Below are positions 35,453 through 62,236 of a stretch of 64,000 nucleotides of DNA, piece after piece; positions within the stretch are counted from its first letter, which is position 1; every line of letters starts with the position of its first letter. Source of the DNA: Anaerolineae bacterium (lineage in GTDB: Bacteria; Chloroflexota; Anaerolineae; Fen-1058). The DNA lies in the NCBI GenBank assembly GCA_035292585.1, contig DATDPU010000033.1:9691-73690 (forward strand), given 5' to 3'. A program made the position numbers and the translations under genes. The notes under the pieces were generated by a model. The model saw nothing but the letters and a program-made list of their open reading frames with translations. It ran no database searches and had not been told where the DNA came from.

Positions 35453-35574
35453 CCGGCTTACCTCGATTCTCCAGACCTGCCGGGTCTTGGAGACGAGGCA
35501 GGTCTGCACGGATTATACACCCGATGTCCGGCCCGTTCTTGTCAGCGATGGGGTGACGTGCTACACTCGCGTCG

Positions 35575-44629: not shown

Positions 44630-44633
<4 letters not shown>
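44566..44633. repeat. hairpin-forming heptamer array (CAACCAA units facing TTGGTTG units)
   Basis: Inverted repeat seen between the hutU stop and the roadblock start. It shares TTGGATAGTTGG with 30637-30648. Confidence 0.75.
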
Positions 44634-46285
<1,652 letters not shown>

Positions 46286-46334
46286 CCTCCAGTTCGACGC
46301 TGGCCGCAGGTCTTAGCGCAGCACCCCTCGCTGT

Positions 46335-46410
46335 TCGGGCAGCAGTTGCACTGCTGCCGCCCGCCCCCCTATAATTGCAATGAGGGGCGGCTGAACTGCG
46401 GCGGAAATAG
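46335..46410. repeat. GC-rich hairpin element (GCAGTTGCACTGC core plus GCCGCCCGCCCCCC...GAGGGGCGGC hairpin)
   Basis: Immediately upstream of hutU. Related to family E and to 49990-50075. Confidence 0.6.
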
Positions 46411-46521
46411 CTTTTAAGACAGCCTGAAACCTGCGCCGATAATGGGGAAGTGTTGCAGCTTGATTAAGGCCGGTAACAGACCGGCGTGTTCAGCGTCGAG
46501 TAGGCCTTTCGGCCAGTTGTC

Positions 46522-47097
46522 ATGATCGAAACTCTTCGTTATCATTCTTACAAAATGCCAACCTTGATTGTTCCGTCCACGAATCTGGTTACTACGCCGG
46601 ACATCGAGAAGCTGCGCCGCGAGAGCGTGACGGGTTGGTTGATCACCAACAACAACCGCCGGCTCACCCCGACCTTCCATTACGGCCCTGAAGAGTCGCG
46701 CCCGCTCCTGGCGACTGCGCTGCACGAGAGTGTTTCACGCCAGATCGGCGCGGCGATCACCGGCCCGCACGCGACGGCGATTGCCGACCGGTTGGCGTTC
46801 GCCGGTTTTACGTTTCGCGACACCAAACGGCGGCTTGCCACCCAGACCATTGCCGTATGGCTGGCGATGCCGTTCGAGATCGATTGGACAATCAAGCTGT
46901 ATTATGCGGCCTGGTATTCCTATCTGACCAGTCAGGCGCTGGCCGGTTGGTTGGCCTGGCAGGAAGAAGGCATTCTGCCGGTCACCGCGTTGCGCCGGAT
47001 GCGCGAGCGGCTGCTGCAAGATTCGGTTGCGGTGCTGACCCGTCTCGAGCTGATCGAATTCCTCAAGCACCTCGACACACTCGCCGCCGAGTGGTAA
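46522..47097 (+). CDS. hypothetical protein
   Basis: 191-aa ORF with good codon and GC pattern and no recognisable motif. Confidence 0.45.
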   Translation: MIETLRYHSYKMPTLIVPSTNLVTTPDIEKLRRESVTGWLITNNNRRLTPTFHYGPEESRPLLATALHESVSRQIGAAITGPHATAIADRLAFAGFTFRDTKRRLATQTIAVWLAMPFEIDWTIKLYYAAWYSYLTSQALAGWLAWQEEGILPVTALRRMRERLLQDSVAVLTRLELIEFLKHLDTLAAEW

Positions 47098-47297
47098 AGC
47101 AAATCACTTTCACCTGACCTCCCCGGCAGGCTCTTCCTGGCGTAATTCAGCCGTCGCCTTTCGTTCAATACGTCAGGAAGACGAGGGTCACTTGTCTTTT
47201 GACAATTGGCCCATCCGGTATAGACTATGACCGCGCGGTCATTATAATCCACTCGTGCAAAACAGCGCGGCGTAGCAACCCGCTAAAGATCGGTGCG

Positions 47298-49973
47298 ATG
47301 TCTTTCCCCGCTCCGTTTGCCACCACCGGTATAACCGAATACCAGAAAAACGCCGACCTGGCGATCTACCTGCTGAATTATCTGGAGCAGACTTGCGATC
47401 CCTATGACCACATCTGGCCGGGCGATCAATTAATCCGCACCGTGCAATACACCTGCCACAGCCTGGAAGCGCTCGACCTGCTCAATTTCAAAGGCGTCAC
47501 CGATCACCTGGCCGGACCGGCCATCGATTGGCTGCTCGATCCACCTCTGGCGCGCGATCTTCCTCCGGAGGATCGCCGCGCGCTGCGCATCTATCCCAGC
47601 CGCTTCAAAACTCTGGCTCAACTTGGCCGGTTCGATCCCGATCGGCTGGCGGCCGACTTTGCCGATATCAGCCAATTGCTCGATCTCAGCACCGGCTGGA
47701 TTCGCAACGCGCCTTACGCGCTCAACCCGCCGCTGATCACGATGATCTGGGTGGACACGCTGTTTCACCTGGAACGTTTGGGCCTGCTCGACCCGACCTG
47801 GCTGGCGCAACGGGAGCGCGCCCTGCAAGCGATTGCCACGGCGTTCGAGGGTTGGGTCAATCAGGCCGCCTTTGCTCTGGCGTTCACGTCTGCGTCTGCG
47901 CCCGCGTCCTTGTCGGATCGGCTGGGGCTGAGTCGGCCGGGCGAAATCGTCAACTCGGGTGACGCCAGCTATGCCTTCGCGCTGCTCATTCAGTCGGGCA
48001 AGTTTGCCGCCGATGCGCCCGTGATCGCTCAAGCGCGGCAGCTGCTCACCACGGCGATCCGGGGACGCCGTCTCGGCGAGATACGCCATACCGACCTGCT
48101 GTATTGCGGCATCCAGCTGCGAACGTATTTCCCTGCAGAGACGGACACGCGCGAGGTGGTCGAGGCGTTTGTCGAGGAACTCCGCGAGCGCTATCAAAAC
48201 AACGAATGCCAGCGTGAGGCGATTTCCTTCCACGCCCTCGTCCTACGTTTGCTCGCCGCGCACCACGGCGAGCGGCTGCGCGAAGCGATTCTTGAAAAAC
48301 TGTGGCTGCAAACGCGCGAGCTCGCCGAGGCCGAGCAACGGCTGGCGCAGGAGCAAATCGAGGCGGCGTTCATCGATCTGGTCCGGCGCAGTATCCACAT
48401 TCATCTCAGCCCGGCGCAACCGATCACCGGAACCGCCAGCCGAGGCGAAGTCTACCGCCTACGCTTCAGCCTGACGACCGAAGCCACCGACGATCGCGGC
48501 GCGCCGTTCTCGCTGCCGCGCGACTCGCTGCGCCTGATCGTGAAAAAGGGTCCGCCCGAGGTTTTAGTGCGCGCCAGCAAGCGCTACCGTGAGCTGCCCG
48601 AACCCTTGCAGCAGCTCTTCGCTCGGCACACGCTTGACGAAGATCGGCGCGAGGCCGCGCCCGGCTATCTGGTCATGCAAGACCTGGCCGACATGCAGCC
48701 GCTCTCCGAAATCCTCGATCAACTCGACCGCCCCACCCTGCGCCGCGAAGAGCACGAGAAAATCGCCACGGCGGCGGCGGCGGTCGCCGACGTGATGGCG
48801 ACCTTGCACGCTTACGATCGCCGCGCCACCGTGGTCGGTCACCAGTTCAACGTGATCTATCTCACGCCGCTGGTGAATTGTCTCAACCGGCTGTGCCAGC
48901 CGCTCGCCTTTCCCGAACTCAAGCAGTGGGTCGAAGGCACACTGGAGGCCAACGGCTGGACCTACAAAAAGTTCGATTGGTATCTCAGACGCCTGAGCCA
49001 GTTCGAGCCGCGGCTACGCCCGGCCGGGCTGGGCTACCTGCACGGCGATTGTCACAGCCGGAACCTGATGCTCAACCGCAGCCTGACGCAGGCGAAGTTC
49101 GTGGACATCGAGACGCTGTCCAAGGCCGAAGACTACGTGATCGATTATGGCTTGCTGATCGAGGACATCGCCGTATATCAGTCGCTGCGTCCCTTTCGTG
49201 AGCATGGCCAGTTGGCGCTGGAGCGGGTTCAGACCAGCCGGCCGGGTAATGAAAGCAGCACGTTGGAGAACTGGATCGCCTACCCGGCCTTTCCTGAACG
49301 CTCGGAAGTGGCTTTAACTTTTCAGCGCGAACTGCTCCGGCGCCTGGAGCAATACGCCGAGGGTATCGGCGACGCCACCTGGAAGGAACGCTTGTGGGTG
49401 GCGATTGCACGCGGGTTGTTCCTGTTGAGCGACCGCCAGCTGACCAGCCATACCATCGAGCCGAAACGCCGCCGCGATGGCCTGAAGCTGGTGCAGGTCG
49501 CTTACGCGGAGGCCACCCGCCTGCTGCACGAGTTAATCGACTGTTTGGAACAGAAGGGCAAAACACCTCTACCCGAACTGCCCTTTCCCGGCGCGCATCG
49601 ACCGCCGCCGCGCGCGCCGGAGAGCCAGGTTTCAGGCTTGATTGGCTCGCTGCTTGAAGCGTTCAAGACTGAGTTCGGCGACATTGCCGACTATCAGCAC
49701 GCGCCGGGCGCGCCTTACCTCATCGACTACTTTACGCGGCCCGATCATCGCCTGTTCGCCCGATTGCACACCAAGAACGTTGCGCCGACGCTCTATCTCG
49801 CCTGCCGCCCCGATCAACTGGACGATCCCCACAACCTGGCTAAAGCGCCGGGCCAGGGCGACTTGGGCGCTCGCATCCCATTGACGCCGGCCACCGCCAT
49901 CCCCGACGTGTTGGCGCTCGTTCGGCAAGCCTATCAGATCGTGGTTCGTTTGGCCGCTCCAACGAAACAGTAA
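47298..49973 (+). CDS. large multidomain protein with C-terminal APH/eukaryotic-like kinase-fold domain
   Basis: The C-terminal region has the Brenner motif YLHGDCHSRNLML and a DxE motif (VDIE). The N-terminal about 400 aa are helical-repeat, possibly an alpha/alpha-toroid. The start is chosen at MSFPAPF. Confidence 0.6.
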   Translation: MSFPAPFATTGITEYQKNADLAIYLLNYLEQTCDPYDHIWPGDQLIRTVQYTCHSLEALDLLNFKGVTDHLAGPAIDWLLDPPLARDLPPEDRRALRIYPSRFKTLAQLGRFDPDRLAADFADISQLLDLSTGWIRNAPYALNPPLITMIWVDTLFHLERLGLLDPTWLAQRERALQAIATAFEGWVNQAAFALAFTSASAPASLSDRLGLSRPGEIVNSGDASYAFALLIQSGKFAADAPVIAQARQLLTTAIRGRRLGEIRHTDLLYCGIQLRTYFPAETDTREVVEAFVEELRERYQNNECQREAISFHALVLRLLAAHHGERLREAILEKLWLQTRELAEAEQRLAQEQIEAAFIDLVRRSIHIHLSPAQPITGTASRGEVYRLRFSLTTEATDDRGAPFSLPRDSLRLIVKKGPPEVLVRASKRYRELPEPLQQLFARHTLDEDRREAAPGYLVMQDLADMQPLSEILDQLDRPTLRREEHEKIATAAAAVADVMATLHAYDRRATVVGHQFNVIYLTPLVNCLNRLCQPLAFPELKQWVEGTLEANGWTYKKFDWYLRRLSQFEPRLRPAGLGYLHGDCHSRNLMLNRSLTQAKFVDIETLSKAEDYVIDYGLLIEDIAVYQSLRPFREHGQLALERVQTSRPGNESSTLENWIAYPAFPERSEVALTFQRELLRRLEQYAEGIGDATWKERLWVAIARGLFLLSDRQLTSHTIEPKRRRDGLKLVQVAYAEATRLLHELIDCLEQKGKTPLPELPFPGAHRPPPRAPESQVSGLIGSLLEAFKTEFGDIADYQHAPGAPYLIDYFTRPDHRLFARLHTKNVAPTLYLACRPDQLDDPHNLAKAPGQGDLGARIPLTPATAIPDVLALVRQAYQIVVRLAAPTKQ

Positions 49974-49989
49974 GAGCGTGTCTCCGGTT

Positions 49990-50075
49990 CCCCCGGATGC
50001 GGCCAGCAATACAACTGCTGTTCGAACCTTGGGTTTGCCCCGCAGTTGTACTGCGGGGTATGAACAGCGATCCAA
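49990..50075. repeat. GC-rich hairpin element (CAGCAATACAACTGCTG and CCCCGCAGTTGTACTGCGGGG)
   Basis: Two stem-loops seen 3' of the large kinase-like gene, with a core related to GCAGTTG(C/T)ACTGC. Confidence 0.6.
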
Positions 50076-50250
50076 CCGCTATCCAAATTTCTGAGACCTC
50101 GAACATCCGACCTCGATTCCTCTGGAAAATCGGATTTTTCTTCCTCAAGAAATAATACCGCCCCAAACAGCATTGTTATTACATGTACAGTCCATTGTAT
50201 AATGACGTTGCTCCGGACAATCGTCAGGCTCTTGCGCGGAAGGGCTCCCC

Positions 50251-51447
50251 ATGACGAGCGAACGCATCCTCGTGGCCGAGGACAGCCGAGAAGTTGCTGC
50301 CTTTCTACAAGGCTATTTGGTGCAACAGGGTTATGAGGTGCAGGTCGTCTACGACGGCGAGACGGCCGTGCGCGTCTTCACGGCCCGCCCCTTCGATCTG
50401 GTGCTAACCGATTTGCAGATGCCGCGCCTGGATGGCCTGGGCGTGCTGCATCACGTGAAAGAGCGCTCCAAAGATACCCAGGTCATTATCCTCACCGGTC
50501 ACGCTTCGCTGGACAGCGCACTCGATGCGCTGCGCCACGGCGCGTATGACTATCTGCTCAAGCCGGTCGACCACGTCGACCAACTCCGCTTCACGATCAA
50601 CCGCGCGTTGCAGCAGCGCCGTCTGGAGCTCGAAAACCGGCGCTTGCTGCAAAAGTTGCAAGAAGCCAACACCCACCTGGAGCAGCGGGTGGCCGAGCAG
50701 ACGCACGAGCTGCGCGAGGCTTACGAGCTGCTGAAACGAGTGCGCCGGCACGCCGATAACGCCCGCCTGGCGACGGGTCTGCTGCACCAGATCAACAACG
50801 CCGTCGCCAATATCCCCGAACTGGTCGAAGAACTCGAATCGCTCAAGTGGTCCGAAGCGGCGACGGCCCCGCTCAACGAGTTGCGCCTGAATGCCCACGC
50901 GGTGGCGCACGTGCGCGACTGGCTGTACCAGTTCGTCAAGATCGGCAACCTGTCGCTCGATCCCGTCGATCTGGTCTCGCTGACCAGCCAGACGATCCAT
51001 CGGCTCGAAAACCGCCGGCCGCCTCACGTCCGCGTCGTCGGCCCGCACGCGCCGGGCTTGGTGCCGCCGATTCAAGCCGATCGGGAACTGATCGGCATCC
51101 TGGTCGACAACCTGCTGCAGAACGCCTTTGAAGCCATTCCGCCTACGCGCAAAGGCTTCGTCGGCGTGTGGATCAAGCCCGAGGCCGAGTATTGCATCTT
51201 GGGGATACGCGACAACGGCGTCGGCATCCGGCCTGAGGATCGGGAACAGATCTGGGAATGGGGTTGGACGACCAAGCGCGAGGTTCGGGATAAGGTACAC
51301 GATCGCGGGCTGGGTCTGTACGCCAGCCGCGAGATCGCCTTCGCGCATGGCGGCGCGCTCGAGCTGGAAAACAGCGGGCCGAATGATGGCGCGGCCTTCG
51401 TGGTGCGTTTGCCCGTGGCTGGACCGCGGCTGGTTTCGGAGAGGTGA
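50251..51447 (+). CDS. hybrid response regulator-histidine kinase, paralogue of 34217-35452
   Basis: Receiver domain about 80% identical over the first 150 aa to the protein at 34217-35452. It has an atypical H-box region (HQINNAVANI) and HATPase_c N/G boxes. Confidence 0.85.
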   Translation: MTSERILVAEDSREVAAFLQGYLVQQGYEVQVVYDGETAVRVFTARPFDLVLTDLQMPRLDGLGVLHHVKERSKDTQVIILTGHASLDSALDALRHGAYDYLLKPVDHVDQLRFTINRALQQRRLELENRRLLQKLQEANTHLEQRVAEQTHELREAYELLKRVRRHADNARLATGLLHQINNAVANIPELVEELESLKWSEAATAPLNELRLNAHAVAHVRDWLYQFVKIGNLSLDPVDLVSLTSQTIHRLENRRPPHVRVVGPHAPGLVPPIQADRELIGILVDNLLQNAFEAIPPTRKGFVGVWIKPEAEYCILGIRDNGVGIRPEDREQIWEWGWTTKREVRDKVHDRGLGLYASREIAFAHGGALELENSGPNDGAAFVVRLPVAGPRLVSER

Positions 51448-51451
51448 GGGT

Positions 51452-53074
51452 ATGTTGACTGACTACCGGCGCCGGGTTTTGCTCGTGGAAGATCAGCCGG
51501 AGGTGTATCGCACCCTGGTGCGGCGGCTCACCGCCGACGGTTACCACGTCACGCTGGCGACGAATTACGCGGACGCGCAGCGCGCGCTCGACACCGAACA
51601 CCTGCACCTTGCCATCTTCGACATTCGCCTCGAAAAGGACGACGAGAAGAACGTGGATGGCTTGCGACTACTGGAAAACGTCGCGGCGCTGCACTTGCAG
51701 GACGTGATGCCCTGCATCGTGCTGACCGCCCACGGCACGCTCCCGTTGGCGCTGCACTCGTTGCTCGAACTCGGCGCGGCGCACTTCATCCCGAAAATTC
51801 GCAAGCACGAAGGCTACATCGCGAAACTGCTGGACGTCGTCGGCGAACTATTCGAGGAGCGGCTATGCATCGGGTTCGACCTGCGGTATGAGGGCAACTC
51901 GCTGCAACGGATCGAGCAATGCGCGCACAGCCTTCACGCCGCCAACGGCGATTTGCCCGCGCCCGAAGCGCTGACGCTGCAAGTCCGCGATCTACTGGGC
52001 AAGCTGTTCATCGGCGCCGAACAACTCTGGATCAACGAGATGAACCAGGGCTTCAGCGGATCGGTCGTGCTGTACGTGCGCCCCACCTGGCCGAACGGTC
52101 TCGGCCAGTCGCTGGTCGTCAAGATCGGGCGGCGCGACAAGATCGAAGCCGAGAAGAAAGCGCACCACGAATACGTCGAGCACTTTCTGCCGACCAATCA
52201 CGCCACCCGCCTGGACGATCGCTATACGCGCCATCTGGGCGCGTTGCTGTACACGCTGGCCAATACCGACGCCGCGGACACGCTGGAGTTTCAGCAGTTC
52301 TATCGTAAAGCGCCCACCGAGAAGATCGTCACGGCGCTGCAAGGCCTGGTGCGCGAGGTGTGCTGGCCGTGGTATCAGGGCCGCACGCCGCCCAAATACG
52401 AGAACCTGCGCGACCTGTACCTGGAGGCATTCAACCTTCAGGCCCAACCCGATCGGCTGCGCCAGGAATTCGCCGCGCTGCGCCCCGGCGTCGATCTCGC
52501 CGCGCCGATGCTCACATTCGAGTCGCCGGGCGTCACTTTGCCTAACCCGCTGCGCTGGCTGGAAGACGACGAAGCCAGCATGCAGCCGGTGTGCCGGAGC
52601 ATCACGCACGGCGACCTGCACGCCGACAACATCCTGATCAACGAGGCTAACCAGTGTTGGTTGATCGATTTCTACCGCACGCGCGAGAGCCACATCCTGC
52701 GCGATTTCGTGGTGCTCGAGACCGACATCAAGTTCCGCCTGGCGGCGGCGCTGTCGGCCGAAGAGTTTTACCAGTTGGAGACGACGCTGGTGCAGCTGGA
52801 GCAGCCCGGCGAGCTCCACTTCGACTCCACGGCCTCGCCCGAAGCGCTCAAGGCCGCTACCGTCATCGCCGGCCTCCGCGCCGAGGCGTGGGAGCTGTTC
52901 GGCCGGCCCACCAATCACACCGCTCGCCAAATTCAGCGCGAGTACCTGATCAGCCTATTGATGGCGACGCTGAACATCTTGCGTCTGCAACATTTCAAGG
53001 AACAGCCGGAGCTCCAGCCGCAGCGCGAACGGGCGCTGCTGTCCGCCGCGCTGATCTGTTGGCAGCTGCAATAG
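51452..53074 (+). CDS. response-regulator receiver fused to an APH-like/eukaryotic-like kinase-fold domain
   Basis: ATG 51452, 4 nt after the upstream stop. Receiver pattern (LLVEDQ...IFDIRL...). Kinase-fold motifs: GFSGSVVLYV, VVKIG (beta3 Lys), SITHGDLHADNILI and WLIDFYRTRES. Confidence 0.7.
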   Translation: MLTDYRRRVLLVEDQPEVYRTLVRRLTADGYHVTLATNYADAQRALDTEHLHLAIFDIRLEKDDEKNVDGLRLLENVAALHLQDVMPCIVLTAHGTLPLALHSLLELGAAHFIPKIRKHEGYIAKLLDVVGELFEERLCIGFDLRYEGNSLQRIEQCAHSLHAANGDLPAPEALTLQVRDLLGKLFIGAEQLWINEMNQGFSGSVVLYVRPTWPNGLGQSLVVKIGRRDKIEAEKKAHHEYVEHFLPTNHATRLDDRYTRHLGALLYTLANTDAADTLEFQQFYRKAPTEKIVTALQGLVREVCWPWYQGRTPPKYENLRDLYLEAFNLQAQPDRLRQEFAALRPGVDLAAPMLTFESPGVTLPNPLRWLEDDEASMQPVCRSITHGDLHADNILINEANQCWLIDFYRTRESHILRDFVVLETDIKFRLAAALSAEEFYQLETTLVQLEQPGELHFDSTASPEALKAATVIAGLRAEAWELFGRPTNHTARQIQREYLISLLMATLNILRLQHFKEQPELQPQRERALLSAALICWQLQ

Positions 53075-53451
53075 CCCGCGTCCGAAAAAGTCTTGTCCAC
53101 GAAGCCACACGAAGGGACACGAAAAGTAAACCTATTCGCTGATGCATTGAACACGCGCACCGTAGTGTAGGGCCTTGCGCCTTTGAACAAAGACATGCTG
53201 GCCTCAGTTGGCGCTACATTGAACAAGCGCGCCGTAGTATAGGGCCTTGTGCCCGTTGCACGCTCACGACACCACACGGGCGTTCGAACATGAGCCAACC
53301 TTTTTTCGTGTGACTTCGTGTATCATCGTGGATGAGCTATCCGTTTCCGCGTGAATCCCGGTTTCCGGTTATGGAATCGGGATTCTCATTTTACGGACTT
53401 CGGCCGATTATGCTATAGTAGTTCCACCACATATTTCGAGTTGGAGCGTGG

Positions 53452-54696
53452 ATGGATTACGCGAGGCGGTTCATCGCCCGGCGCGGCTACGTCATCCCCC
53501 TAGTCGCCTTCCTGTTTGTGCTGGGCATCCTGCTCGATCCCGAACGCTGGATCGGCGGCGTGGCCTGGACGTTGCTCGCCGCCTATGGCCTGTACCGTTT
53601 TGCAGTGTGGATGGCGGGCCCGTATACCCTACCGATCGAGCCAAGTTATGATGCGGCCGCGTACGCCCGAAATGTGCTCGGCCTGTTCGCGGGCGGCCAG
53701 CGGCCGGGGATGGCGGTGGTGCGCGAAGGCAAAGTGCTCCCCGACCCGGCCGGCAAACCGCGCGAGAACGTGCGCGGCGTCGGCGCGATCCTGGTCGACG
53801 GGACGAGCGTCGTCGCGCTGGTGACCGACACCGGCCTGAGCCGAATCGAGGGGCCGGGCGTGCATTTCCTGCGCGAGGGCGAAAAACTCGGCCCGGTCAT
53901 CGATCTCCGGCCGCAGCTGCGCAGCAAAGAGATCGAGGCCCAAACGCAGGATGGCATCTGGATCAAGTTTAGGGTTGCCGTGCGCTTCCAGGTAGATCGC
54001 ACGGTGCCGCGCAAAGTCCAAGAGATCGTTCCCAAACAAGCGCGCTACGCCGAGCCGTATACCTGGTCGCAGCACGCCGTCAAGCGCCTGCTCGGACACA
54101 CCCGCATCGGGGCCGATGCCAATCAAACCGAACGCTGGGATGATCGCGCGCTCAACGAGGCGATCAAGCGCGCGCAGATCGCCGTGGCCGGGTACACCTT
54201 CGATCGACTGACCGAGCCGGGCGATCCACGCCTGAACCCGCGCGAAGATATTCGCCAACGGCTGGAAGAGGAGCTCAAAGCCGACCTGGTGAGCGAAGGG
54301 CTTAAACTGCTGGGGCTGCGCATCGGCCAGTTCGTCCCCCGCGATAAAGAAGTGATGGAGCAGCGGATTCGATCGTGGCAGGCCGACTGGATTCGCCAGA
54401 TGAAGATCATCGAGGCAGAAAGCCTGGCCGAGCGGTTCCGGTTGATCGAGACGGCGCGCGCGCAAGGGCAGATGGAGCTGGTGATGCGCATCGTGCAGGC
54501 GCTGGAAGCCAGCCGGCAGATCGGCGTGGAGAATGCCGAGCAGGTCGCGCTGCGGCTGCTGGAGGTGGTCGAACAACTGGCCACCGAACCCGAGATCGAG
54601 CAGCGCTTGACCGGCGAAGCGCGTGCGGCGCTCGACGAAGCCCACGTCAAGTTGCTGAAGAAAGGACCGAGTGGTGGCGTGGCTGCCTCCTCCTAG
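53452..54696 (+). CDS. SPFH/band-7 (flotillin-like) membrane protein, module copy 1
   Basis: Two N-terminal TM helices; SPFH core pattern GPGVHFL...IDLRPQ...QTQDGIWIKFRVAVRFQV; long C-terminal coiled-coil. Confidence 0.6.
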   Translation: MDYARRFIARRGYVIPLVAFLFVLGILLDPERWIGGVAWTLLAAYGLYRFAVWMAGPYTLPIEPSYDAAAYARNVLGLFAGGQRPGMAVVREGKVLPDPAGKPRENVRGVGAILVDGTSVVALVTDTGLSRIEGPGVHFLREGEKLGPVIDLRPQLRSKEIEAQTQDGIWIKFRVAVRFQVDRTVPRKVQEIVPKQARYAEPYTWSQHAVKRLLGHTRIGADANQTERWDDRALNEAIKRAQIAVAGYTFDRLTEPGDPRLNPREDIRQRLEEELKADLVSEGLKLLGLRIGQFVPRDKEVMEQRIRSWQADWIRQMKIIEAESLAERFRLIETARAQGQMELVMRIVQALEASRQIGVENAEQVALRLLEVVEQLATEPEIEQRLTGEARAALDEAHVKLLKKGPSGGVAASS

Positions 54697-56434
54697 CTTC
54701 AGCGAAGTCACGCGCACGGTTGAGACGTCGGCGCGGCAGTGGTGGAGGCGCGAAGCGACGCGCGCGGCGCTGCGCCTGGCGTCTGTCGGCGCGATCATCG
54801 TCGGGCTGGGCGTGATCGGTTGGAGCTTCATCGCGCTGACGATCTTCCCCGATCGCTCGACGGCCGTCGCCAGCAACGAGCAGCCGTGCGTGTACGATGC
54901 AGGGCCAGCGCAATCCGATCGATACAGCCCGCCCCCCCGGCCGGCGCCGTTCGTCGCCGGGCAGCTCGCCGGAGTCGAACTCTCCGTGCTCAACCGGGGC
55001 ACGTGCAGCTGGGATACCCGGCTGACGTTGCAGCGCCAAGGCGGCTCGCTGCCTACAGCGCCGCTCGTCGTCAGCGTGACCCAGGAAACGCTCCCGGATG
55101 CTTTTCTCCAGGTGCAGATCCCGTTTACCGCGCCGCTGACCGTCGGCGTGTACGATTCGATCTGGCGGATGCGCGCACCCGACGGGCAGCCCTTCGGCGC
55201 GCCAATCCGATTTTCGATCATCACCTATCCCGAAGGCGCTGCCCCGGTTTACCCGGCCGAGTCGCCGCTCACGCTCGGCGGGCTGGTCAAGTTCTTCGCG
55301 CTGATGCTGCCGGGCATGTTGGGATTGATGGTGGCCCTGGAGCGCGCCGGGCGCTTCATGCGCGAGTTTTACGGCCTCAAGAAAGATCGCTCCGGCCGCG
55401 CGTATTTGATCTATCGGCTGTTTGGGGTGGGGGAACGCGCCCGGATCACGGTCGCCGACGGCGAAGCGAAATTCGAGGCCGAGGATGAAGCGATCGACAA
55501 GATCGGCGGGCCGGGCCTGTTATCGGTGCACAGCGACATGGCGGCGGTCCTCGAACGCGGCGGCGCGTACTCCGGCATGGTCGGGCCGAACAAGATCATC
55601 CTGTTCCCGTTTGAGCGCGTGCGCGCGGTGATCGACTTGCGCCGGCTGAAACGGACCAAAACCGAATCGGCTTATACCAAAGACGGCATCGAGGTGAAAG
55701 CGGATACGAGCGCATCGTTCGAGTTGGTACAGCGGATGGAAGGTGAACAGGTTCCGGAGCCGGAGAAGCACATGTCGTGGGTGAAGCTGTTCCGCAGCTG
55801 GCTCGGCTTCCGGGTCAAACGGCCCAAGCAGCTCCGGCCGTTGCCCGCCTCGGCCGAAGCGATCCGCCTCATCCTTTACGAGCTGCCGGTCCCGGTAAAG
55901 TGGGACAGCGCCGTGTCGAGCGACTTCGGCGAAGAAATCCCTAAACGGATGCTCGACGAGCTGTGGGCGCCTGAAGACCGCGAGTATAACCCCCGGCGTG
56001 AGCTGGTGCTCGAGATGTTCAACAAACAGCGCGCGTCCCTGCGCAAACGCGGCGTCGAGCTGATCGATCTGACGATTGGCCCGTTGAAAGTGCCGCCGGA
56101 GGTGGACAAGCAGCTGCGCGACTACTGGCAGATGGTGTGGGAGTCGCGCTCGCGCGTGACCCAGGCTGCCGGCGAGGCGCAGGCGTTGCGCCAGGCGCAG
56201 ACGGCGCGCGCCGAGGCGCAGGCCGAGCTCATTCACGCCATCGCGCAGAGCTTCCGCATGATGGCCGCCAGCGGCGCATCGCAACCCTCGCAGGTGATCG
56301 CCGAGAAGATGATCGAAGTGATCGCGCGCACGATGAAGGTAACGCTGGAGGACGCGATCCAACCGATCGGGCCGGCCGATAAAGCCCTGCTGCTCCTCGA
56401 TCGGCTGCATGACATCGTCAACCCGTCGGGATGA
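54671..56434 (+). CDS. membrane protein with beta-sandwich (Ig/NBR1-like) domain and SPFH-like domain, module copy 1
   Basis: TM helix; GTCSWDTRLTLQ...YDSIWRMRAPDGQPFGAPIRFSI beta-sandwich pattern; second TM; SPFH-like DLRRL...TKDGIEVKADTSASFELV; C-terminal coiled coil. Confidence 0.5.
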   Translation: MVAWLPPPSFSEVTRTVETSARQWWRREATRAALRLASVGAIIVGLGVIGWSFIALTIFPDRSTAVASNEQPCVYDAGPAQSDRYSPPPRPAPFVAGQLAGVELSVLNRGTCSWDTRLTLQRQGGSLPTAPLVVSVTQETLPDAFLQVQIPFTAPLTVGVYDSIWRMRAPDGQPFGAPIRFSIITYPEGAAPVYPAESPLTLGGLVKFFALMLPGMLGLMVALERAGRFMREFYGLKKDRSGRAYLIYRLFGVGERARITVADGEAKFEAEDEAIDKIGGPGLLSVHSDMAAVLERGGAYSGMVGPNKIILFPFERVRAVIDLRRLKRTKTESAYTKDGIEVKADTSASFELVQRMEGEQVPEPEKHMSWVKLFRSWLGFRVKRPKQLRPLPASAEAIRLILYELPVPVKWDSAVSSDFGEEIPKRMLDELWAPEDREYNPRRELVLEMFNKQRASLRKRGVELIDLTIGPLKVPPEVDKQLRDYWQMVWESRSRVTQAAGEAQALRQAQTARAEAQAELIHAIAQSFRMMAASGASQPSQVIAEKMIEVIARTMKVTLEDAIQPIGPADKALLLLDRLHDIVNPSG

Positions 56435-56440
56435 GAGCCT

Positions 56441-57493
56441 ATGTCGCCGCGACCCCTGGAATTGATCGAGGTGCTGTCTGACTTTCAAGCGACCCTGCCC
56501 GAGCTGGAGCGGTTGTATCGGGAGGCGCTCGACTTGATGCAGGCGGGAAAGCTATGGGACGCGCACAACCGCGCGCAAGCGATGCTGCGCGATGGAACTA
56601 CGCGCAACGACCGCCAGGCGCAAGCGTTGGCCTGTGCGCTGCTGGCCGGTGTTCACGCCCTACACGGCCGATTCAGCGAAGCAGTCGATCAAGCCGAAAA
56701 TTGCCATCGCTTCTTCCAGAACATGGGCTATCCGGCCCAGGCGGCCATCGGCCACGCGCTGCTGGCCGTGATTTATCAAATGCACATCGAAGCCATCAAC
56801 CGGGAGCTGATCGAGTCGCTGCACGCGAGTCGGGAGGAAACCCAGGACCTGGAAAGCAAGGCTTTGAGCAAGGGCAATGCTCACCTCCAGATTGCCGAGC
56901 AGTATCGTCAGCAGTTCGTGGAGTTCGGCGAGGTGATCCGCCGCGCCCGCTGGGTTCCGGCCATTCCCTACACGCTCCCGCTGGTCTGGTTGCCGGTCAT
57001 CAATTCCATTCCCCACGAGTTGGACACGCAGAAACTCGAGCCGCTGGGCTATCTGGAACCGGTGCTGTTCGTGTTGAAGGGCAAGCGCGAGATCGAGCGC
57101 GAAGAGTCCGGGCAGGCCGATCCCGCTCAGATGGCGGATGTGTTGTACACCGCGCGACCGCTGCCCCCCTTTGAAGGTGAAGAGCCAACGCCGCTCCGCC
57201 CGCCTCAGTTGAAACGGGGCGCGATCTACGCCGCGATCAAAGTCGATCCGGAGAGCGCGCACCTGGCGCGCTTGCAACCGGACGACTACTTGCTCGTGCG
57301 CAGCCTCACGCCTGAGGAGCGCGAGCAGCTCCTCAAACAGCCCGACGACAGCAGCGCCAGTTTTATCTTCCGCATGAACGACCACGGCCAGATCGAAGTC
57401 GTTCGGCCGATCCCGCCGAAGTTCGTCGGCGAACGACATATCATCGAGATGCTGGAAGCGAAGGTGGATGCGGTGCTGAGAAAGGTGCCGTAG
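56441..57493 (+). CDS. hypothetical protein with TPR-like N-terminal helical repeats, module copy 1
   Basis: Helical repeat N-terminus with no catalytic motif. The start is 7 nt after the upstream stop. Confidence 0.45.
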   Translation: MSPRPLELIEVLSDFQATLPELERLYREALDLMQAGKLWDAHNRAQAMLRDGTTRNDRQAQALACALLAGVHALHGRFSEAVDQAENCHRFFQNMGYPAQAAIGHALLAVIYQMHIEAINRELIESLHASREETQDLESKALSKGNAHLQIAEQYRQQFVEFGEVIRRARWVPAIPYTLPLVWLPVINSIPHELDTQKLEPLGYLEPVLFVLKGKREIEREESGQADPAQMADVLYTARPLPPFEGEEPTPLRPPQLKRGAIYAAIKVDPESAHLARLQPDDYLLVRSLTPEEREQLLKQPDDSSASFIFRMNDHGQIEVVRPIPPKFVGERHIIEMLEAKVDAVLRKVP

Positions 57494-57769: not shown

Positions 57770-59026
57770 ATGAAGCTCCAGCAGCGCGTGGTAACCGTCC
57801 CTGCCAAGTGGCTCCTCCTTCTCACGCTGTTCCTGATTGTGCTCGGTTTGCTCATCGATCGCGAACGATCATTGGGCGGCATTGCCTGGTCCTTCGTCAC
57901 CGCTTACGGCATGTATTTGTTCGGCACCTGGTTTATCGCGCCATATTTGTTGCCGCTACGTAATGATCCTGGAGCGTCGGCTCGAGCCCGCGACCTGTTC
58001 AATCAATTTGCCAACGGGCAGAAGATCGGCCTGGCTATAGTGCGCGACGGAAAAGTCGAGCCGAAATCCGATGGCAAGCCACGTGAGAACGTGCGGGGTG
58101 AAGGCATCCTCATTGTTGATAGCACAAGTGTTGTCCCTTTGTTCAAAGACACGGGTTCTAGTCGTCTGGTGGGGCCGGGCGTGCACTTCCTGCGCAAGGG
58201 TGAAAAATTTACAAGAGTAATAGACTTACGACCACAGGCACGTTCGCTTGAAGACAAAGAAAAGGATAAAGGGGCGCAGTTTGTCAAGGTGCAAACACGT
58301 GACGGCATCTGCGTGAAATTCAAGATCGCTACACGTTTTCAAATCGACGGCGTCATTCCGCGAAACGTGTTGGAGATCGATCAAGGCAAGATGCCTTTGC
58401 CCGAGCCCTATGTCTGGTCGCAACATATTGTACGGCGTGCTATTGGGCACACGCGGTTTGGTGCAGACAACAAACCTGCGATGCCCTGGGATTTGCTCGT
58501 CCTCACCGAGGCTGTCAAGCGCGTCCACACCTACATTGCTGACTACAGGTTCGACGAGTTGGCCGAACCGCGCAACCCTCTCCTCAATCCGCGCGAAGAC
58601 ATTCGGAAGAAACTCGAAGAGGAGTTAAAAGCGGAGATGGCGCGCGAAGGAATCAAAGTGCTCAGCCTGAAGATCGGCCCATTCGAGCCGTGTGATGAAG
58701 AGGTTGGCAAACAGCGGTTGAGATCATGGGAAGCAGAATGGGTCCGCCGCACTAAAGTCATTGAGGCTGAAGCCGAAGCGGAATCTCGGAAGCGGTTGGA
58801 ACTGGCCCGTGCACAGGCGCAGATGGATACGATGACCCGCATGATCGAGGCGCTCGACGCTAGCCGGCGGGCCGGGGCGAACAACGCCGATCTGATCGCC
58901 CTGCGTTTCTTGGAAGTGGTGGAAGGCCTGGCGAAAGACCCTGAGACGCAGAAGACTCTTCGTCACGTCCGCGGCCAACTGCTGGGAGAGAAAACTGATG
59001 GCGCTGCTGCCTCAGCCAAGTCTTAA
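57770..59026 (+). CDS. SPFH/band-7 (flotillin-like) membrane protein, module copy 2 (paralogue of 53452-54696)
   Basis: Collinear with copy 1 (GPGVHFLRKGEKF..IDLRPQ...QTRDGICVKFKIATRFQI). Lower GC. Confidence 0.6.
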   Translation: MKLQQRVVTVPAKWLLLLTLFLIVLGLLIDRERSLGGIAWSFVTAYGMYLFGTWFIAPYLLPLRNDPGASARARDLFNQFANGQKIGLAIVRDGKVEPKSDGKPRENVRGEGILIVDSTSVVPLFKDTGSSRLVGPGVHFLRKGEKFTRVIDLRPQARSLEDKEKDKGAQFVKVQTRDGICVKFKIATRFQIDGVIPRNVLEIDQGKMPLPEPYVWSQHIVRRAIGHTRFGADNKPAMPWDLLVLTEAVKRVHTYIADYRFDELAEPRNPLLNPREDIRKKLEEELKAEMAREGIKVLSLKIGPFEPCDEEVGKQRLRSWEAEWVRRTKVIEAEAEAESRKRLELARAQAQMDTMTRMIEALDASRRAGANNADLIALRFLEVVEGLAKDPETQKTLRHVRGQLLGEKTDGAAASAKS

Positions 59027-60758
59027 TGAGGTCGGGCAGGCGATCAGCGCGACGTTACATGGCTGGTGGACGCGCGAATCAATACGGGCACGGCGGCGTC
59101 TGGTGTTCGTCGTTGGCCTTCTATTGCTGCTGGGGAGTCTGGGGGCAGCTTTCATTACGCTGCCGATTTTTCCCGATCCTCCCACGCTGATTACCAGTGG
59201 CGAGGAGGCATGCGTGTACGATTCTGCTCCCGAGCATTTACCCAGCCGTCTCGGCCCTGCACCAACGCCACAGCCGGTGGTTGCAGGCAGGCCGGGGATG
59301 CTCAACTTCTATGTTCGTAACGTTGGCACGTGCGCCTGGGACAACCGTGTGACGGTATACCGTGAGGGCGGCAATTATACAAGCGCCGCGCAAGTTTTCG
59401 GCTCGATTCAAACAACTTCCCAGGGCGCTTTTCTGCCAGTGTCAATCCCGTACACGGCGCCATTAAGCAGTGGTGTTTATCAAGCGGTTTATCGTATGCG
59501 TTCGCCTGACAGCCGCAGCTTCGGCAAGCCGATCGTCATTTCAATTATCACGCACTTGGAAGGCAGCCCAGTGACGTATCCGTCGGAGCCGCCCATCAAT
59601 GCCGTGACCCTGCTCCTCTTACTGTTGCCAGGCGCCATTGGTTTCGGTATCGCGGTGTATCACGCCGGGCAGTTCGTTAAGGAACTCTACAGCTTGATGA
59701 ACAATCGCTTTGGGTATGGCTACGTCCTGCGGCGCTTGTTTGCGTTGGGTCCGCCTCGCTCAGCGACAGTCTCTAACGGAGAGGTAGAGGTGGATGGAGC
59801 AAACGAGACGTTGACGAAGATCGGTGGGCCAGGTAAGTTAACGGTTCACGGCGGCATGGCGGCATTATTGGAACGCGGTGGCGGCTTCTCGCGCATCGTG
59901 TGGGCAGGTAAGCATACGTTAGCTCCGTTCGAGCGGGCGCGCAAGGCGTTCGACCTCCGCCAACTGAGCCGTACCAAGACTGAATCGACCTGGACAAAGG
60001 ATGGAATCAAGGTCGAGGCTGAGGTGACAGTCTCGTTCAAACTGATGAAACGAAAAGACGGCGAGGTGGTTTCAAAGCCGGCAGCGAAGCCGACTTGGTG
60101 GCCGCTGCTGCGAGCATGGCTGGGGTTCAAAGCGCGAAAGCCCAAAGACCCAGACAGCCCGGCGGCCTCACCCGAAGCAATTCGTGCGCTCGTGTACGAA
60201 TCGGTGGCCGGAAAAGAGTGGCATGAAACGGTATCGAGCGGGTTGGACGAGGAGATTCCCAAACGAATGCTGGACGAGTTATGGGCGCCAGACCCGGACG
60301 TGGGCCGCGTTAACCCCCGCCGCGAGATTGTGAAAGAGCTGTTCGACAATGCCCAAAAGAAGCAACGCGACCGGGGCATTGATCTGATCGACATCGAAAT
60401 AGGTCCGTTGGTCGTACCGCTGGAGGTGGCGGATCGGCGGCGCGAGTGGTGGCGCGCATTCTGGGAAAAAGATCGCCGTATTACCGAGGCCGAAGGCAAT
60501 GCCGAAGCGCTGCAGGTGCGTGAACTGGCACGCGCAGAAGCGCAAACGCGGATGATTAAGGCTATTACGCAGGGCTTACAAGGATTTCAGGCAGTCGGTA
60601 GGAAAAGACTCGGTGAGGTGTTAGCTCTGCGCTTCATAGATACAGTTGAGTCGATCGCTAGCGTATGGTTGACCGATGAGAGTCGGGCGAGTTATTTGAC
60701 CATGATCAATGAGTTGAGAAAATTATCAAGCAGGCCGGATGGCGCGGAAGGAGAGTAG
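58998..60758 (+). CDS. beta-sandwich + SPFH-like membrane protein, module copy 2 (paralogue of 54671-56434)
   Basis: GTCAWDNRVTVYREGG...YQAVYRMRSPDSRSFGKPIVISII, SPFH-like DLRQLSRTKTESTWTKDGIKVEAEVTVSFKL, and a conserved EEIPKRMLDELWAP block. Confidence 0.5.
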   Translation: MALLPQPSLNEVGQAISATLHGWWTRESIRARRRLVFVVGLLLLLGSLGAAFITLPIFPDPPTLITSGEEACVYDSAPEHLPSRLGPAPTPQPVVAGRPGMLNFYVRNVGTCAWDNRVTVYREGGNYTSAAQVFGSIQTTSQGAFLPVSIPYTAPLSSGVYQAVYRMRSPDSRSFGKPIVISIITHLEGSPVTYPSEPPINAVTLLLLLLPGAIGFGIAVYHAGQFVKELYSLMNNRFGYGYVLRRLFALGPPRSATVSNGEVEVDGANETLTKIGGPGKLTVHGGMAALLERGGGFSRIVWAGKHTLAPFERARKAFDLRQLSRTKTESTWTKDGIKVEAEVTVSFKLMKRKDGEVVSKPAAKPTWWPLLRAWLGFKARKPKDPDSPAASPEAIRALVYESVAGKEWHETVSSGLDEEIPKRMLDELWAPDPDVGRVNPRREIVKELFDNAQKKQRDRGIDLIDIEIGPLVVPLEVADRRREWWRAFWEKDRRITEAEGNAEALQVRELARAEAQTRMIKAITQGLQGFQAVGRKRLGEVLALRFIDTVESIASVWLTDESRASYLTMINELRKLSSRPDGAEGE

Positions 60759-60760
60759 TT

Positions 60761-62236
60761 GTGGCAGCCAGTCTAATCTTGTCCAACCTGCTCAGTTTGC
60801 TTGAAGTCCATGACCAAAATAGAGCTGCTGATGTGTTTAGGCTCTGTGAAGATGCAGAAGCTCTCCGCAGACGACAGCAGCCTTTTAAGGCTATTGAAGT
60901 TGCGAAGTACGCCGAGCGGCTCTCATACGATACTCATAGTCACAACCTTAATGGCATCGCTTTGCTGTATCTAAGTCTGGCACGCTTATCCTCGAACTTG
61001 CCGAGCGAAGCCGAACAAGCAGTCCGCGACTGTGAGCGAGCAATTACCGCTTTCCACTTAGAGCCGCACAACGATGCTATTGCTCGAATATTTCGAGCAA
61101 GGCTTGACCTCTGCTTAGAAGCTATTTCTGATCAAAACAAGGAAGAATGGCACCAAGCAGCGTTCGTCCATTTTCGTCAAGCGGCTGAGTGTCTACAGCA
61201 GCTGGTGCGTCACTGGACAGTACGGGGCAATCGTAAGAAGGTCGAAGTTTATCAAGATCTCTACAACACGATCCATACGACCACTGAAGAATTATCGAGC
61301 AACTTGGCACAAGTTACACCGCTCCGCGTTTCGCCCAAACGGCCTCGCCGACCGAAGGCTGTACCCAATAGCAACTCATCCGAGTCTACTTCTAATGAAC
61401 CCCCAGAGTCAACTCAACCTAGTCGTGTTTCGCCTCCGATCGATCTGGGTATTCCGACCCGGCTCTACTGGCCTGATGCAAGTAAACCGATAGCCCTGCC
61501 GCTTAACATTCCATTCGTCATCTTTAATTCTTCGGTCGCCACATCCGATGGGTCAATCGCGCCGACTGAGGAATTAGAGATCAATGAATTCGCCATCGCA
61601 GGCCGGTCGTACACGCTCCGCCCCTTGAGAAGAGACTCAGAGAATCGCCGATTGTCGCGCCTTCGTTGCCGCCAGTCATATATTGCCACTTGGGTTCCGG
61701 GGAATGAGGATAAAACTATCGACAGTGATGAGTACGTGTTGGTGCGACTACAGGATCAACTCGATAAACCCGATCAGGAAGTAGTGATCGATCAGACCCC
61801 GGACGGGGAGCCAGGTGCTCGTTACTGGATCATCCGAGATGGCTCGGAGTCGAGCCGGTACGACAAGCAAGACCTTCGGATCATTGGCATCATTGAAGCG
61901 GTGCTGACGCCATGCGAATCAATGGACAAGCAGATCAACGAATTGCTCACCTGCGTGGATGATCTCCACGCTGCCGAAGGTCTCGACCCCGCGTTCGAGC
62001 AAGGTTTAGCTGCTATTCGGGATAAGTTCTACAAGCACTTCGCCAAACATTACAATCTGCAGCCTATACCGATCGTACCGGGTACAACCGTGTTTGATCC
62101 CAACCAAGGTCACCATGCGATTGGCTTTGAGCATGTCGATACATTGGATGAGGGCGTGATCCTCAGCGTCTTCAGCGATGGCTACTACCGCGAGGGCAAA
62201 GTTTTTCGAGAAGCAAAGGTGATTGTCAATCAATGA
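60761..62236 (+). CDS. TPR-like protein with C-terminal GrpE-like domain, module copy 2 third gene
   Basis: The C-terminal 70 aa (VFDPNQGHHAIGFEHVDTLDEGVILSVFSDGYYREGKVFREAKVIVN) match the GrpE C-terminal beta-domain pattern (DPN.H.A......G.V......GY.L.G...R.A.V.V). Confidence 0.45.
   Translation: MAASLILSNLLSLLEVHDQNRAADVFRLCEDAEALRRRQQPFKAIEVAKYAERLSYDTHSHNLNGIALLYLSLARLSSNLPSEAEQAVRDCERAITAFHLEPHNDAIARIFRARLDLCLEAISDQNKEEWHQAAFVHFRQAAECLQQLVRHWTVRGNRKKVEVYQDLYNTIHTTTEELSSNLAQVTPLRVSPKRPRRPKAVPNSNSSESTSNEPPESTQPSRVSPPIDLGIPTRLYWPDASKPIALPLNIPFVIFNSSVATSDGSIAPTEELEINEFAIAGRSYTLRPLRRDSENRRLSRLRCRQSYIATWVPGNEDKTIDSDEYVLVRLQDQLDKPDQEVVIDQTPDGEPGARYWIIRDGSESSRYDKQDLRIIGIIEAVLTPCESMDKQINELLTCVDDLHAAEGLDPAFEQGLAAIRDKFYKHFAKHYNLQPIPIVPGTTVFDPNQGHHAIGFEHVDTLDEGVILSVFSDGYYREGKVFREAKVIVNQ

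Follow-up and report, generated by a model that had tools for sequence, protein, structure and literature searches.

We analyzed a stretch of 64,000 nucleotides from an Anaerolineae bacterium (contig DATDPU010000033.1, hereafter the window), in which a series of + strand genes extends from 46.5 to 63.8 kb. The series includes a large kinase-fold protein, a receiver-histidine kinase hybrid, a response regulator whose receiver is followed by a TCAD9 kinase domain, and two groups of SPFH-family genes. Elsewhere the window encodes housekeeping functions, namely cytochrome c maturation, aldehyde ferredoxin oxidoreductase, transporters, TrkA and urocanase. The locus is base-for-base the same in three independent assemblies (ENA, JGI and Logan), which rules out an assembly artefact, and a search of Rfam with positions 46-64 kb gave no match. 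Loci of relatives are designated below by L numbers. The two genes at the centre of our analysis are:

51452-53074, + strand: receiver-TCAD9 response regulator (540 amino acids), recognized by Pfam, homologue alignment, AlphaFold and Foldseek
50251-51447, + strand: receiver-histidine kinase hybrid (398 amino acids), recognized by Pfam, paralogue comparison and H-box alignment

The product of 51452-53074 is predicted to be an intact receiver joined to a catalytically complete APH-type kinase. Pfam detected a Response_reg domain (E 1.5e-14) and the TCAD9 family (PF19974; 137.3 bits, E 1.1e-39, in two stretches spanning the domain, for a cut-off of 40), as well as APH (PF01636) with 26.6 bits, barely over the gathering cut-off of 23.2. 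The Pkinase (Hanks-type Ser/Thr), HipA, CotH and fructosamine kinase profiles of Pfam gave nothing at E <= 0.1, and Kdo (17 bits) and RIO1 (14 bits) both remained below the Pfam cut-off. APH is thus the only one of the families suggested in a preliminary description of this DNA that was recovered. The receiver (51470-51865) carries the acidic pocket E13/D14, the phospho-acceptor D57 (51620-51622), T92 and K115. All the motifs quoted in the preliminary description were found in the kinase domain (51899-53071): the G-loop GFSGSVV (residues 200-206, 52049-52069), VVKIG with K224 (residues 222-226, 52115-52129), the catalytic loop HGDLHADNILI (residues 386-396, 52607-52639) and WLIDFYRT with the metal-binding D406 (residues 403-410, 52658-52681). 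Among 24 homologues, down to 28% identity, D57, G203 of the Gly-loop, the alpha-C glutamate E234, H386, G387, D388, N393 and D406 are invariant, and the beta-3 lysine K224 is conserved in at least 90%.

The AlphaFold model of the 540 amino acid regulator (predicted local distance difference test, pLDDT, 91.6; predicted template modelling score 0.88) agrees with these assignments. Searched against the PDB with Foldseek, its N-terminal half matched CheY-like receivers, and its kinase half matched maltokinase 4u94 (E 3.9e-7), APH(3')-Ia, macrolide 2'-phosphotransferase and APH(4). A sequence search of the PDB with the regulator family profile retrieved receiver domains only, and no solved relative of the kinase part. 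APH, choline kinase and maltokinase enzymes are the best structural matches of this domain and of the other kinase domain of the locus described below; they have in common the HGDxxxxN loop, the metal-binding aspartate and the beta-3 lysine, and this APH-type catalytic apparatus is shared by the Pfam TCAD9 family and the regulator kinase. However, sequence identity to these enzymes is 11-17%, and the TCAD9 domain differs from them by an extended conserved block past the metal-binding aspartate (YRTxxSHILRDFVxLETD). Proteins of this type are at present annotated just as 'response regulator' or 'hypothetical protein'.

The regulator gene begins 4 bp past the end of the histidine kinase gene. In the product of the latter, Pfam found Response_reg and HATPase_c (E 1.3e-15). 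It consists of a receiver (50251-50610) with D54 and the pocket residues E10/D11, T82 and K104, a coiled-coil linker (50611-50745), a lineage-specific DHp domain (50746-51060) and an ATP-binding domain (51079-51420) with an intact N box (NLLQNAFEAIP), G1 box (DNGVGI) and G2 box (GLGLY). HisKA (PF00512) matched neither this protein nor seven partner kinases of its relatives, whereas a paralogous hybrid kinase encoded at 34217 matches HisKA with an E-value of 8e-19. H179 of the hybrid lies within LLHQINNAV (50779-50805), where the paralogue has SHELRTPL; the histidine is kept, and across 19 partner kinases it is invariant. We aligned the C-terminal halves of 17 kinases located upstream of receiver-TCAD9 genes and obtained an H-box consensus of roughly ATGLxH(D/Q)INNAVAxIPDL with an invariant histidine. 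The H-box of the window kinase, DNARLATGLLHQINNAVANIPELVEELE, is close to that of a Thermoflexales relative, RNARLATGLLHQINNTVANIPDLVAEIE, and near-identical to that of L004. The H-box, earlier described as atypical, does depart from the HisKA type, but it is the signature of a private lineage of partner kinases and not a degenerate site. When the DHp and ATP-binding half served as the query of a word-indexed search, seven proteins were retrieved, a number that is no measure of the size of this lineage.

The receiver-TCAD9 family was then considered across genomes. A search of 5.8 billion proteins gave 117 matches, nearly all from Chloroflexota where the organism was named, and searching exhaustively with a profile returned about 1,460 clusters (50% identity) at E <= 1e-30; nearly all of the best 150 clusters cover the full profile. 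The receiver-TCAD9 architecture, which had been presented as uncommon, is therefore common in Chloroflexota, with an output domain that belongs to a defined Pfam family. Gene context was counted in 52 loci, 49 of them fetched genome loci and three further ones, all searched with neighbour-built profiles. A histidine kinase of the same lineage is located directly upstream of the receiver-TCAD9 gene in 46 of these 52 loci, the rest being truncated contigs or merged reading frames. This recurrence, together with the 4 bp gap in the window, leads us to propose that the histidine kinase controls the receiver-kinase, and in the family the former presumably phosphorylates the receiver of the latter. 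The phosphorelay with an atypical kinase suggested in the preliminary description is upheld to this extent.

The neighbours of the pair are more variable. A STAND ATPase fused to an OmpR-type winged helix (~455 amino acids) occurs in 38 of the 52 loci, a second STAND-like ATPase (~515 amino acids) in 22, an SPFH-family gene in 18 and an M29-like peptidase in 13; a NACHT-FGE protein was found in 12 loci, only where the regulator carries SIR2. Examples of complete sets are the L018 type, with M29-like, nSTAND, STAND-GAF kinase, receiver-TCAD9, nSTAND-winged-helix and Band_7 genes, and the L008 type, with NACHT-FGE, kinase, receiver-TCAD9-SIR2 and nSTAND-winged-helix genes. In most relatives the upstream partner kinase contains a STAND-type ATPase region (AAA_16, ATPase_2 or AAA_35) and one to several GAF domains. 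The regulator itself exists as a bare form (~540 amino acids), with SIR2_2 (~830 amino acids), with TIR_2, or with both SIR2 and TIR, and the SIR2 part of the relatives' regulators is ThsA-like according to PADLOC (E 4e-11). These STAND and GAF sensors and SIR2 and TIR effectors, which constitute the main context of the family, had been missed in the preliminary description.

Several natural variants delimit the system. Four proteins of 900-1,270 amino acids (P0169, P0179, P0182 and P0210) have GAF fused directly to TCAD9, without histidine kinase or receiver; in these the sensor side would be linked directly to the kinase domain and the phosphotransfer step bypassed. L086 is a minimal two-gene form located among housekeeping genes, with a GAF-kinase and a receiver-TCAD9-TIR protein. 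In L088 (10001-12502), a sensor-less partner kinase of 275 amino acids (DHp and ATP-binding domains) is followed by a receiver-TCAD9 protein of 556 amino acids. Fragments of AAA_22/AAA_16 ATPases and a Band_7 gene are also present near the L088 pair. Finally, in L080 (2293-13477) a seven-GAF histidine kinase with the same type of H-box (LQHRINNTLNIIIPNI) heads a layout reminiscent of Detocs but built from this lineage of kinases and receivers: next to it are two receivers that stand alone, then a receiver joined to Schlafen/AlbA_2, a TIR-receiver protein, a distant SPFH pair and finally an S24-like protein. The L080 receivers share with the family the beta3-alpha3 insertion LDIRLDxxDExNxDGL. 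The invariant core thus appears to be the kinase-regulator pair, with sensors and effectors swapped around it. In the literature on TCAD9, on receivers with APH output and on SPFH/STAND anti-phage kinases, we found no paper describing this family. We consider it probable on balance that 50251-51447 and 51452-53074 form a dedicated two-component pair of this large, nearly exclusively Chloroflexota family, and that the window copy is a rewired and reduced one.

The rewiring concerns the sensor half of the kinase. Two genes on the opposite strand are pertinent here:

34217-35509, - strand: paralogous receiver-HisKA-HATPase_c hybrid kinase with a canonical H-box
31939-34173, - strand: GAF-PAS histidine kinase adjoining the paralogue, recognized by Pfam

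Residues 1-165 of the hybrid (receiver and linker) are 78% identical to the kinase at 34217 at the protein level and 79% at the DNA level, confirming the value of about 80% first given for the receiver. Beyond residue 165 identity drops to 28%, and the similarity stops abruptly inside the coiled coil, immediately ahead of the DHp domain. The hybrid is therefore best described as an evolutionary chimera, in which the receiver and linker of an ordinary hybrid kinase are fused, at the coiled coil, with the DHp and ATP-binding domains of the private lineage. In the window copy, a receiver and coiled coil of the 34217-paralogue type replace the sensor half of the family kinase, and the window has none of the STAND and peptidase genes that accompany the pair elsewhere. 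When 50251-50745 was compared with 34958-35452 (-), identity at codon positions 1, 2 and 3 was 84%, 92% and 61%, respectively. A very recent gene conversion of the hybrid receiver from the paralogue was rejected, since third-position identity is just 61%; set against 92% at second positions, this value indicates purifying selection since the duplication. Orthologues with the same build and a length of 400-405 amino acids were found, including in L065 and L066. As the receiver and kinase portions of the L065 orthologue are 61% and 59% identical, respectively, to those of the hybrid, the hybrid build is older than the split from L065, and the extra likeness of the hybrid to its in-genome paralogue reflects a later duplication or conversion.

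The closest relatives of the regulator are found in L062 (68% identity) and in L065 and L066 (59%). In L065 the upstream order is STAND-winged helix, Band_7, M29-like peptidase, STAND ATPase, 954 amino acid GAF-kinase, receiver-histidine kinase and regulator; the first five of these genes have been lost from the window or were never there. It could be argued that the window holds a decaying remnant, which has lost its sensor and accessory genes, has no function, and retains its kinase folds for want of time: nSTAND, M29-like and GAF-kinase genes still present in the 59% identical L065 are missing here, and genes have been gained and lost in this island. Nevertheless, every reading frame is intact, all catalytic, ATP-binding and phospho-acceptor residues are kept, the receiver-kinase architecture is maintained in three or more other clusters (60-63% identity), and the codon-position pattern given above argues for purifying selection. 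We regard such a remnant as improbable.

The other members of the + strand series are:

47298-49973, + strand: K891, a toroid-kinase of 891 amino acids
46522-47097, + strand: protein of 191 amino acids with no family match, 69% identical to L070:7563-8105
53075-53451, + strand: intergenic region at the junction of the kinase and SPFH units
53452-57493, + strand: SPFH module 1, recognized by Pfam, hydrophobic segments and synteny with L062, L065 and L066
57770-63807, + strand: SPFH module 2 with GrpE-fusion and pentapeptide-repeat genes

The gene preceding the hybrid kinase had been described as encoding 924 amino acids. This length needs a TTG start at 47199, whereas the ATG at 47298 gives 891 amino acids; the latter is favoured because it is used in two of three public gene calls, because the homologue alignment starts at that methionine and because a promoter-like site is located at 47221-47248. 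In the model of K891 (pLDDT 83.6), an (alpha/alpha)6 toroid (47298-48392) precedes a kinase fold (approximately residues 366-750, 48393-49547) and a small alpha+beta C-terminal domain (49626-49955). The protein does contain the second kinase-fold domain announced earlier, but this domain is central and not at the end. Its best Foldseek match was choline kinase 4da5 (E 7.9e-7), followed by APHs; the APH profile scored 19.5 bits (E 8.8e-4), under the cut-off of 23.2, and a PDB sequence search with the K891 family profile gave nothing significant. K416, H582, D584, H586, R588, N589 and D603 (catalytic motif HGDCHSRN at 582-589) are invariant in 23 homologues, so that catalytic residues are retained in both kinase-fold proteins of the locus; the alpha-C glutamate is not invariant in the K891 family. 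In a profile-profile alignment of K891 with TCAD9, the lysine, the HGDxHxxN loop and the metal-binding aspartate line up (probability 51%, E 1.5e-4), and one distant K891 homologue has a precomputed TCAD9 match. K891 is treated here as a putative, distant TCAD9-like kinase.

The K891 family comprises about 48 clusters of proteins of about 880 amino acids, and the members with names come from Chloroflexota metagenome-assembled genomes. Neither a histidine kinase nor a receiver-TCAD9 gene adjoins K891 homologues in six distinct loci. In five of these six, the homologue is followed by a STAND-like ATPase of about 450-470 amino acids, which profiles assign to the STAND-winged-helix family; L055 is the exception, where a type I restriction-modification operon follows and has a K891 paralogue on either side. 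A Band_7 protein of about 300 amino acids comes next in three loci (L053, L057 and L061), with a weak profile match at this position in L058. STAND, TPR and radical-SAM genes often precede K891 homologues. In the clusters L055:1-22658, L057, L061 and L053 we observed AAA_22/nSTAND ATPases, a TPR protein of about 1,200 amino acids, a radical-SAM enzyme, small open reading frames, STAND-winged-helix and Band_7 genes; the radical-SAM enzyme has a weak viperin-like PADLOC match, and a SPASM domain in L057. The Band_7 proteins beside K891 homologues gave no phmmer match to the window SPFH proteins at E <= 1e-3, the two groups being linked, weakly, by iterated profiles only.

In the preliminary description both kinase-fold proteins were placed in the same phosphorelay, with the SPFH proteins as possible targets. 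A single integrated system, in which the two would be linked via the hybrid kinase and would phosphorylate the SPFH proteins, could account for the adjacency of the genes on the same strand, for the distant homology of the two kinase domains and for the recurrence of SPFH-family genes beside both families. However, K891 adjoins receiver-TCAD9 in the window lineage only (1 of 52 loci, hence none of the 51 others), and the converse association is equally missing from the six K891 loci. The closest K891 relative (68% identical) has STAND genes on its flanks and no histidine kinase. Furthermore, K891 has its own promoter-like site and is separated from the hybrid kinase by a 277 bp gap with a stable hairpin and, by consensus matches, a TATAAT box. 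We therefore find an integrated relay very doubtful, and K891 is more plausibly a neighbour in the same variable island than a conserved relay partner. At its other loci, K891 takes the place of the histidine kinase and regulator, beside the STAND-winged-helix and Band_7 families that also accompany receiver-TCAD9. Together with L032, where K891-type TPR and radical-SAM genes are joined to the kinase-regulator pair, this suggests that K891 and the pair are different front ends of one common back end.

SPFH module 1 consists of a membrane-anchored SPFH_A1 protein (53452-54696), an Ig-like and SPFH protein with two transmembrane segments (54671-56434) and a protein of 350 amino acids with no family match (56441-57493). 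Module 2 contains SPFH genes at 57770-59026 and 58998-60758, and the two SPFH pairs of the window are 45-54% identical to one another. They are followed by a GrpE-fusion gene (60761-62236), in whose product of 491 amino acids the GrpE domain covers residues 378-491 only, and by a pentapeptide-repeat gene (62233-63807). The G+C content is 0.52-0.57 over 57770-63807 and 0.60-0.68 in the remaining window, which suggests a separate acquisition. In the Ig-SPFH proteins (54671-56434 and 58998-60758), an N_BRCA1_IG-like Ig domain lies between hydrophobic segments (residues 31-61 and 202-224) and is followed by SPFH, an arrangement that would place the Ig domain outside the cytoplasm, as a loop on a membrane scaffold.

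SPFH_A and Ig-SPFH_B genes come directly after the regulator in all three closest relatives (L062, L065 and L066), to which this adjacency is confined. The GrpE-fusion gene is also present in L065 and L066, and L066 has the pentapeptide gene downstream as well. These arrangements give some support to a functional link between regulator and SPFH proteins within the closest subclade. Conversely, a metagenome scan with the Ig-SPFH protein revealed the module of SPFH_A, Ig-SPFH_B and the 350 amino acid protein alone, in L068 and L070. The order in L070 is urocanase, 191 amino acid gene, SPFH_A, Ig-SPFH_B, 350 amino acid gene, PfkB and IndA, without kinase genes. Between L070:5666-14797 and window positions 44630-57493, identity is 90% for HutU and 85% and 71% for TrkA, as compared to 53% for SPFH_A, 46% for Ig-SPFH_B and 43% for the 350 amino acid gene; sequence divergence is much faster in the island than in the genes that flank it. 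From the L070 layout, the 5.9-kb block of three kinase genes is an indel between the 191 amino acid gene and SPFH_A1. Since the 191 amino acid gene is directly upstream of the SPFH module in relatives, it marks the left edge of this indel; it was considered as part of the K891 family context and rejected, as it travels with the SPFH module.

At the other edge, the boundary 53075-53451 contains a terminator-like hairpin with a 13-bp stem (53353-53385) and a promoter-like site (53390-53419, consensus matches). It also contains a 30-nt inverted repeat (53096-53125 / 53303-53332, 83% complementary), which encloses two 37-nt direct repeats, 89% identical and 72 nt apart. The repeat core, CCGTAGTRTAGGGCCTTG, is found nowhere else in the window and has no Rfam match; the repeats at 53096-53332 could represent a short repetitive element, or else a structured leader, where the indel ends. 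Apart from them, a search for flanking direct repeats as insertion scars of the 5.9-kb block yielded short matches of chance quality only. The presence of the SPFH module without kinases in L070, and the hairpin and promoter-like site between the two units, speak against the earlier proposal that the SPFH proteins are the targets of the kinases, in spite of their position in the three closest relatives and of the SPFH genes in other loci.

The same region bears on an explanation without any conflict role, namely an envelope or membrane-stress circuit, in which the pair would control a small-molecule kinase (acting on a sugar, a lipid head-group or an antibiotic-like compound) and the SPFH scaffolds and GrpE-like protein would serve membrane-protein quality control. 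The closest folds (maltokinase, APH, macrolide phosphotransferase and choline kinase), the lack of a toxic effector domain in the window copy, the SPFH, Ig-SPFH and GrpE-fusion genes that directly follow in the closest relatives, the SPFH-family genes in 18 of the 52 loci and the housekeeping flanks would all fit such a circuit. It accounts poorly for relatives in which the kinase carries a fused SIR2 or TIR domain and is accompanied by STAND or NACHT sensors, for the close relative with the SPFH module at the same site and no kinases, and for the separation of the two units by the terminator-like hairpin and an independent promoter-like site; moreover, island genes far more divergent than their flanks would be unusual for housekeeping quality control. 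We consider this explanation unlikely, although less so than the remnant or the integrated relay.

Comparison with known systems directed us to Detocs, which consists of the DtcA kinase, the DtcB buffer receiver and the receiver-PNP effector DtcC, and in which a histidine kinase with a receiver-effector has been experimentally shown to be anti-phage (Rousset et al., bioRxiv 10.1101/2023.01.24.525353). As in Detocs, a sensor histidine kinase is located beside a regulator with an enzymatic effector in place of a DNA-binding output, effectors are swapped among relatives (TCAD9, SIR2, TIR, Schlafen), and extra receivers occur in L080. In contrast to Detocs, the effector is here a kinase instead of an ATP nucleosidase, the sensors are STAND/GAF and not TPR, and the window receiver is fused to a kinase rather than being a stand-alone buffer. 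PADLOC-DB 2.0.0 gave no Dtc match on the window proteins and the fuller relatives, the presence of Detocs models in this release being unconfirmed.

The protein-kinase-like family TCAD9 owes its name to its occurrence with vWA-MoxR-VMAP 'ternary' conflict systems (Kaur et al. 2020, PMC7159879; PMC10910872), whose effectors include active APH-superfamily kinases and receiver domains (Kaur et al., PMC7159879). In contrast to the TCAD9 of these systems, the domain is here the output of a two-component regulator: no vWA, MoxR or VMAP family was found among the Pfam-scanned open reading frames of the window, nor did the conserved neighbours in relatives include one. Similarities to Thoeris, with its ThsA-type SIR2/TIR NADases, and to STAND/Avs sensors come from relatives that carry SIR2_2 and/or TIR and are paired with STAND/NACHT ATPases, whereas SIR2, TIR and STAND domains are absent from the window's own proteins and the NADase role of the relatives is predicted only. 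NCBIfam gave merely generic receiver and kinase matches, with scores far under the cut-offs. As an example, the Leptospira LvrB model (NF047466), which has the same order of receiver, coiled coil, DHp and ATP-binding domain, aligns end to end with the hybrid (5-389 of 398; E 4.5e-19) with 68.9 bits, far under its cut-off of 500; unlike LvrB, the hybrid has a DHp from the private lineage that partners receiver-TCAD9.

On our best reading, the locus lies in a variable island and holds a rewired copy of a two-component system whose family resembles Detocs and has not been described before. The proposed mechanism would start with the phosphorylation of D54 of the hybrid by another histidine kinase, for which the GAF-PAS kinase at 31939-34173 is a candidate. 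Phosphorylated D54 would modulate autophosphorylation at H179, from which the phosphoryl group would move to D57 of the regulator. Phosphorylation of D57 would then switch on the TCAD9 kinase, which would phosphorylate its substrate, a small molecule or a partner protein. The GAF-PAS kinase is proposed as candidate donor on account of its position beside the paralogue, as the receivers of paralogue and hybrid have almost the same alpha-1 helix (SREVAAFLQGYLVQQG vs SRDVAAFLQGYLSQQG).

For the family as a whole, one can envisage an immune-type function, in which a STAND-ATPase/GAF kinase with the private H-box senses an intracellular insult and, by way of the receiver, activates a TCAD9 kinase that in many cases carries SIR2 or TIR, in concert with STAND-winged-helix proteins and SPFH scaffolds. 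The window would hold a version rewired, through the receiver-kinase hybrid, to accept input from a different two-component pathway, beside a sister toroid-kinase in a fast-evolving island. This proposal is tentative, and we would not give it even odds. It is suggested by fusions to SIR2, TIR and Schlafen, by partners of the STAND and NACHT types, by the behaviour of the locus as a variable island and by the conflict systems from which TCAD9 takes its name; a role of Detocs type in conflict or as a stress alarm, drawn by analogy, is the least certain part of our interpretation.

A number of observations weigh against the interpretation developed here. The closest structural neighbours of the regulator kinase are all small-molecule kinases, which fits a metabolic role as well as signalling. 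The window copy lacks a SIR2/TIR effector, STAND genes and a GAF sensor. PADLOC detected no known defence system among 10 window proteins and 10 proteins of fuller relatives, the sole matches being receiver-domain cross-matches and, in relatives, the ThsA-like SIR2 and the weak viperin-like radical SAM. The left flank of the kinase genes (HutU, TrkA) is housekeeping, and no mobile-element genes were seen in the window. In addition, the GAF-PAS kinase as phosphoryl donor for both near-identical receivers is a guess from their 78% identity, and the receiver of the hybrid might act instead as a phosphate sink. Some APH-fold enzymes are protein kinases, and the modelled TCAD9 kinase may have a protein substrate in spite of its small-molecule fold neighbours.

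Response regulators nearly always end in DNA-binding or cyclic-di-GMP domains. Those described here, with a putative APH-type kinase output, form a large family whose signalling logic is so far unstudied, and in which the kinase is sometimes chained to predicted NAD-destroying domains and fed by STAND-ATPase histidine kinases. H179, D57, K224, D388 and D406 provide concrete residues for testing, and the GAF-TCAD9 fusions, the sensor-less kinases and the minimal two-gene forms are natural variants that dissect the pathway. If the family is indeed a defence or alarm system, it would be the second independent case, after Detocs, of His-Asp phosphotransfer in immunity, and the first with a kinase between receiver and effector.

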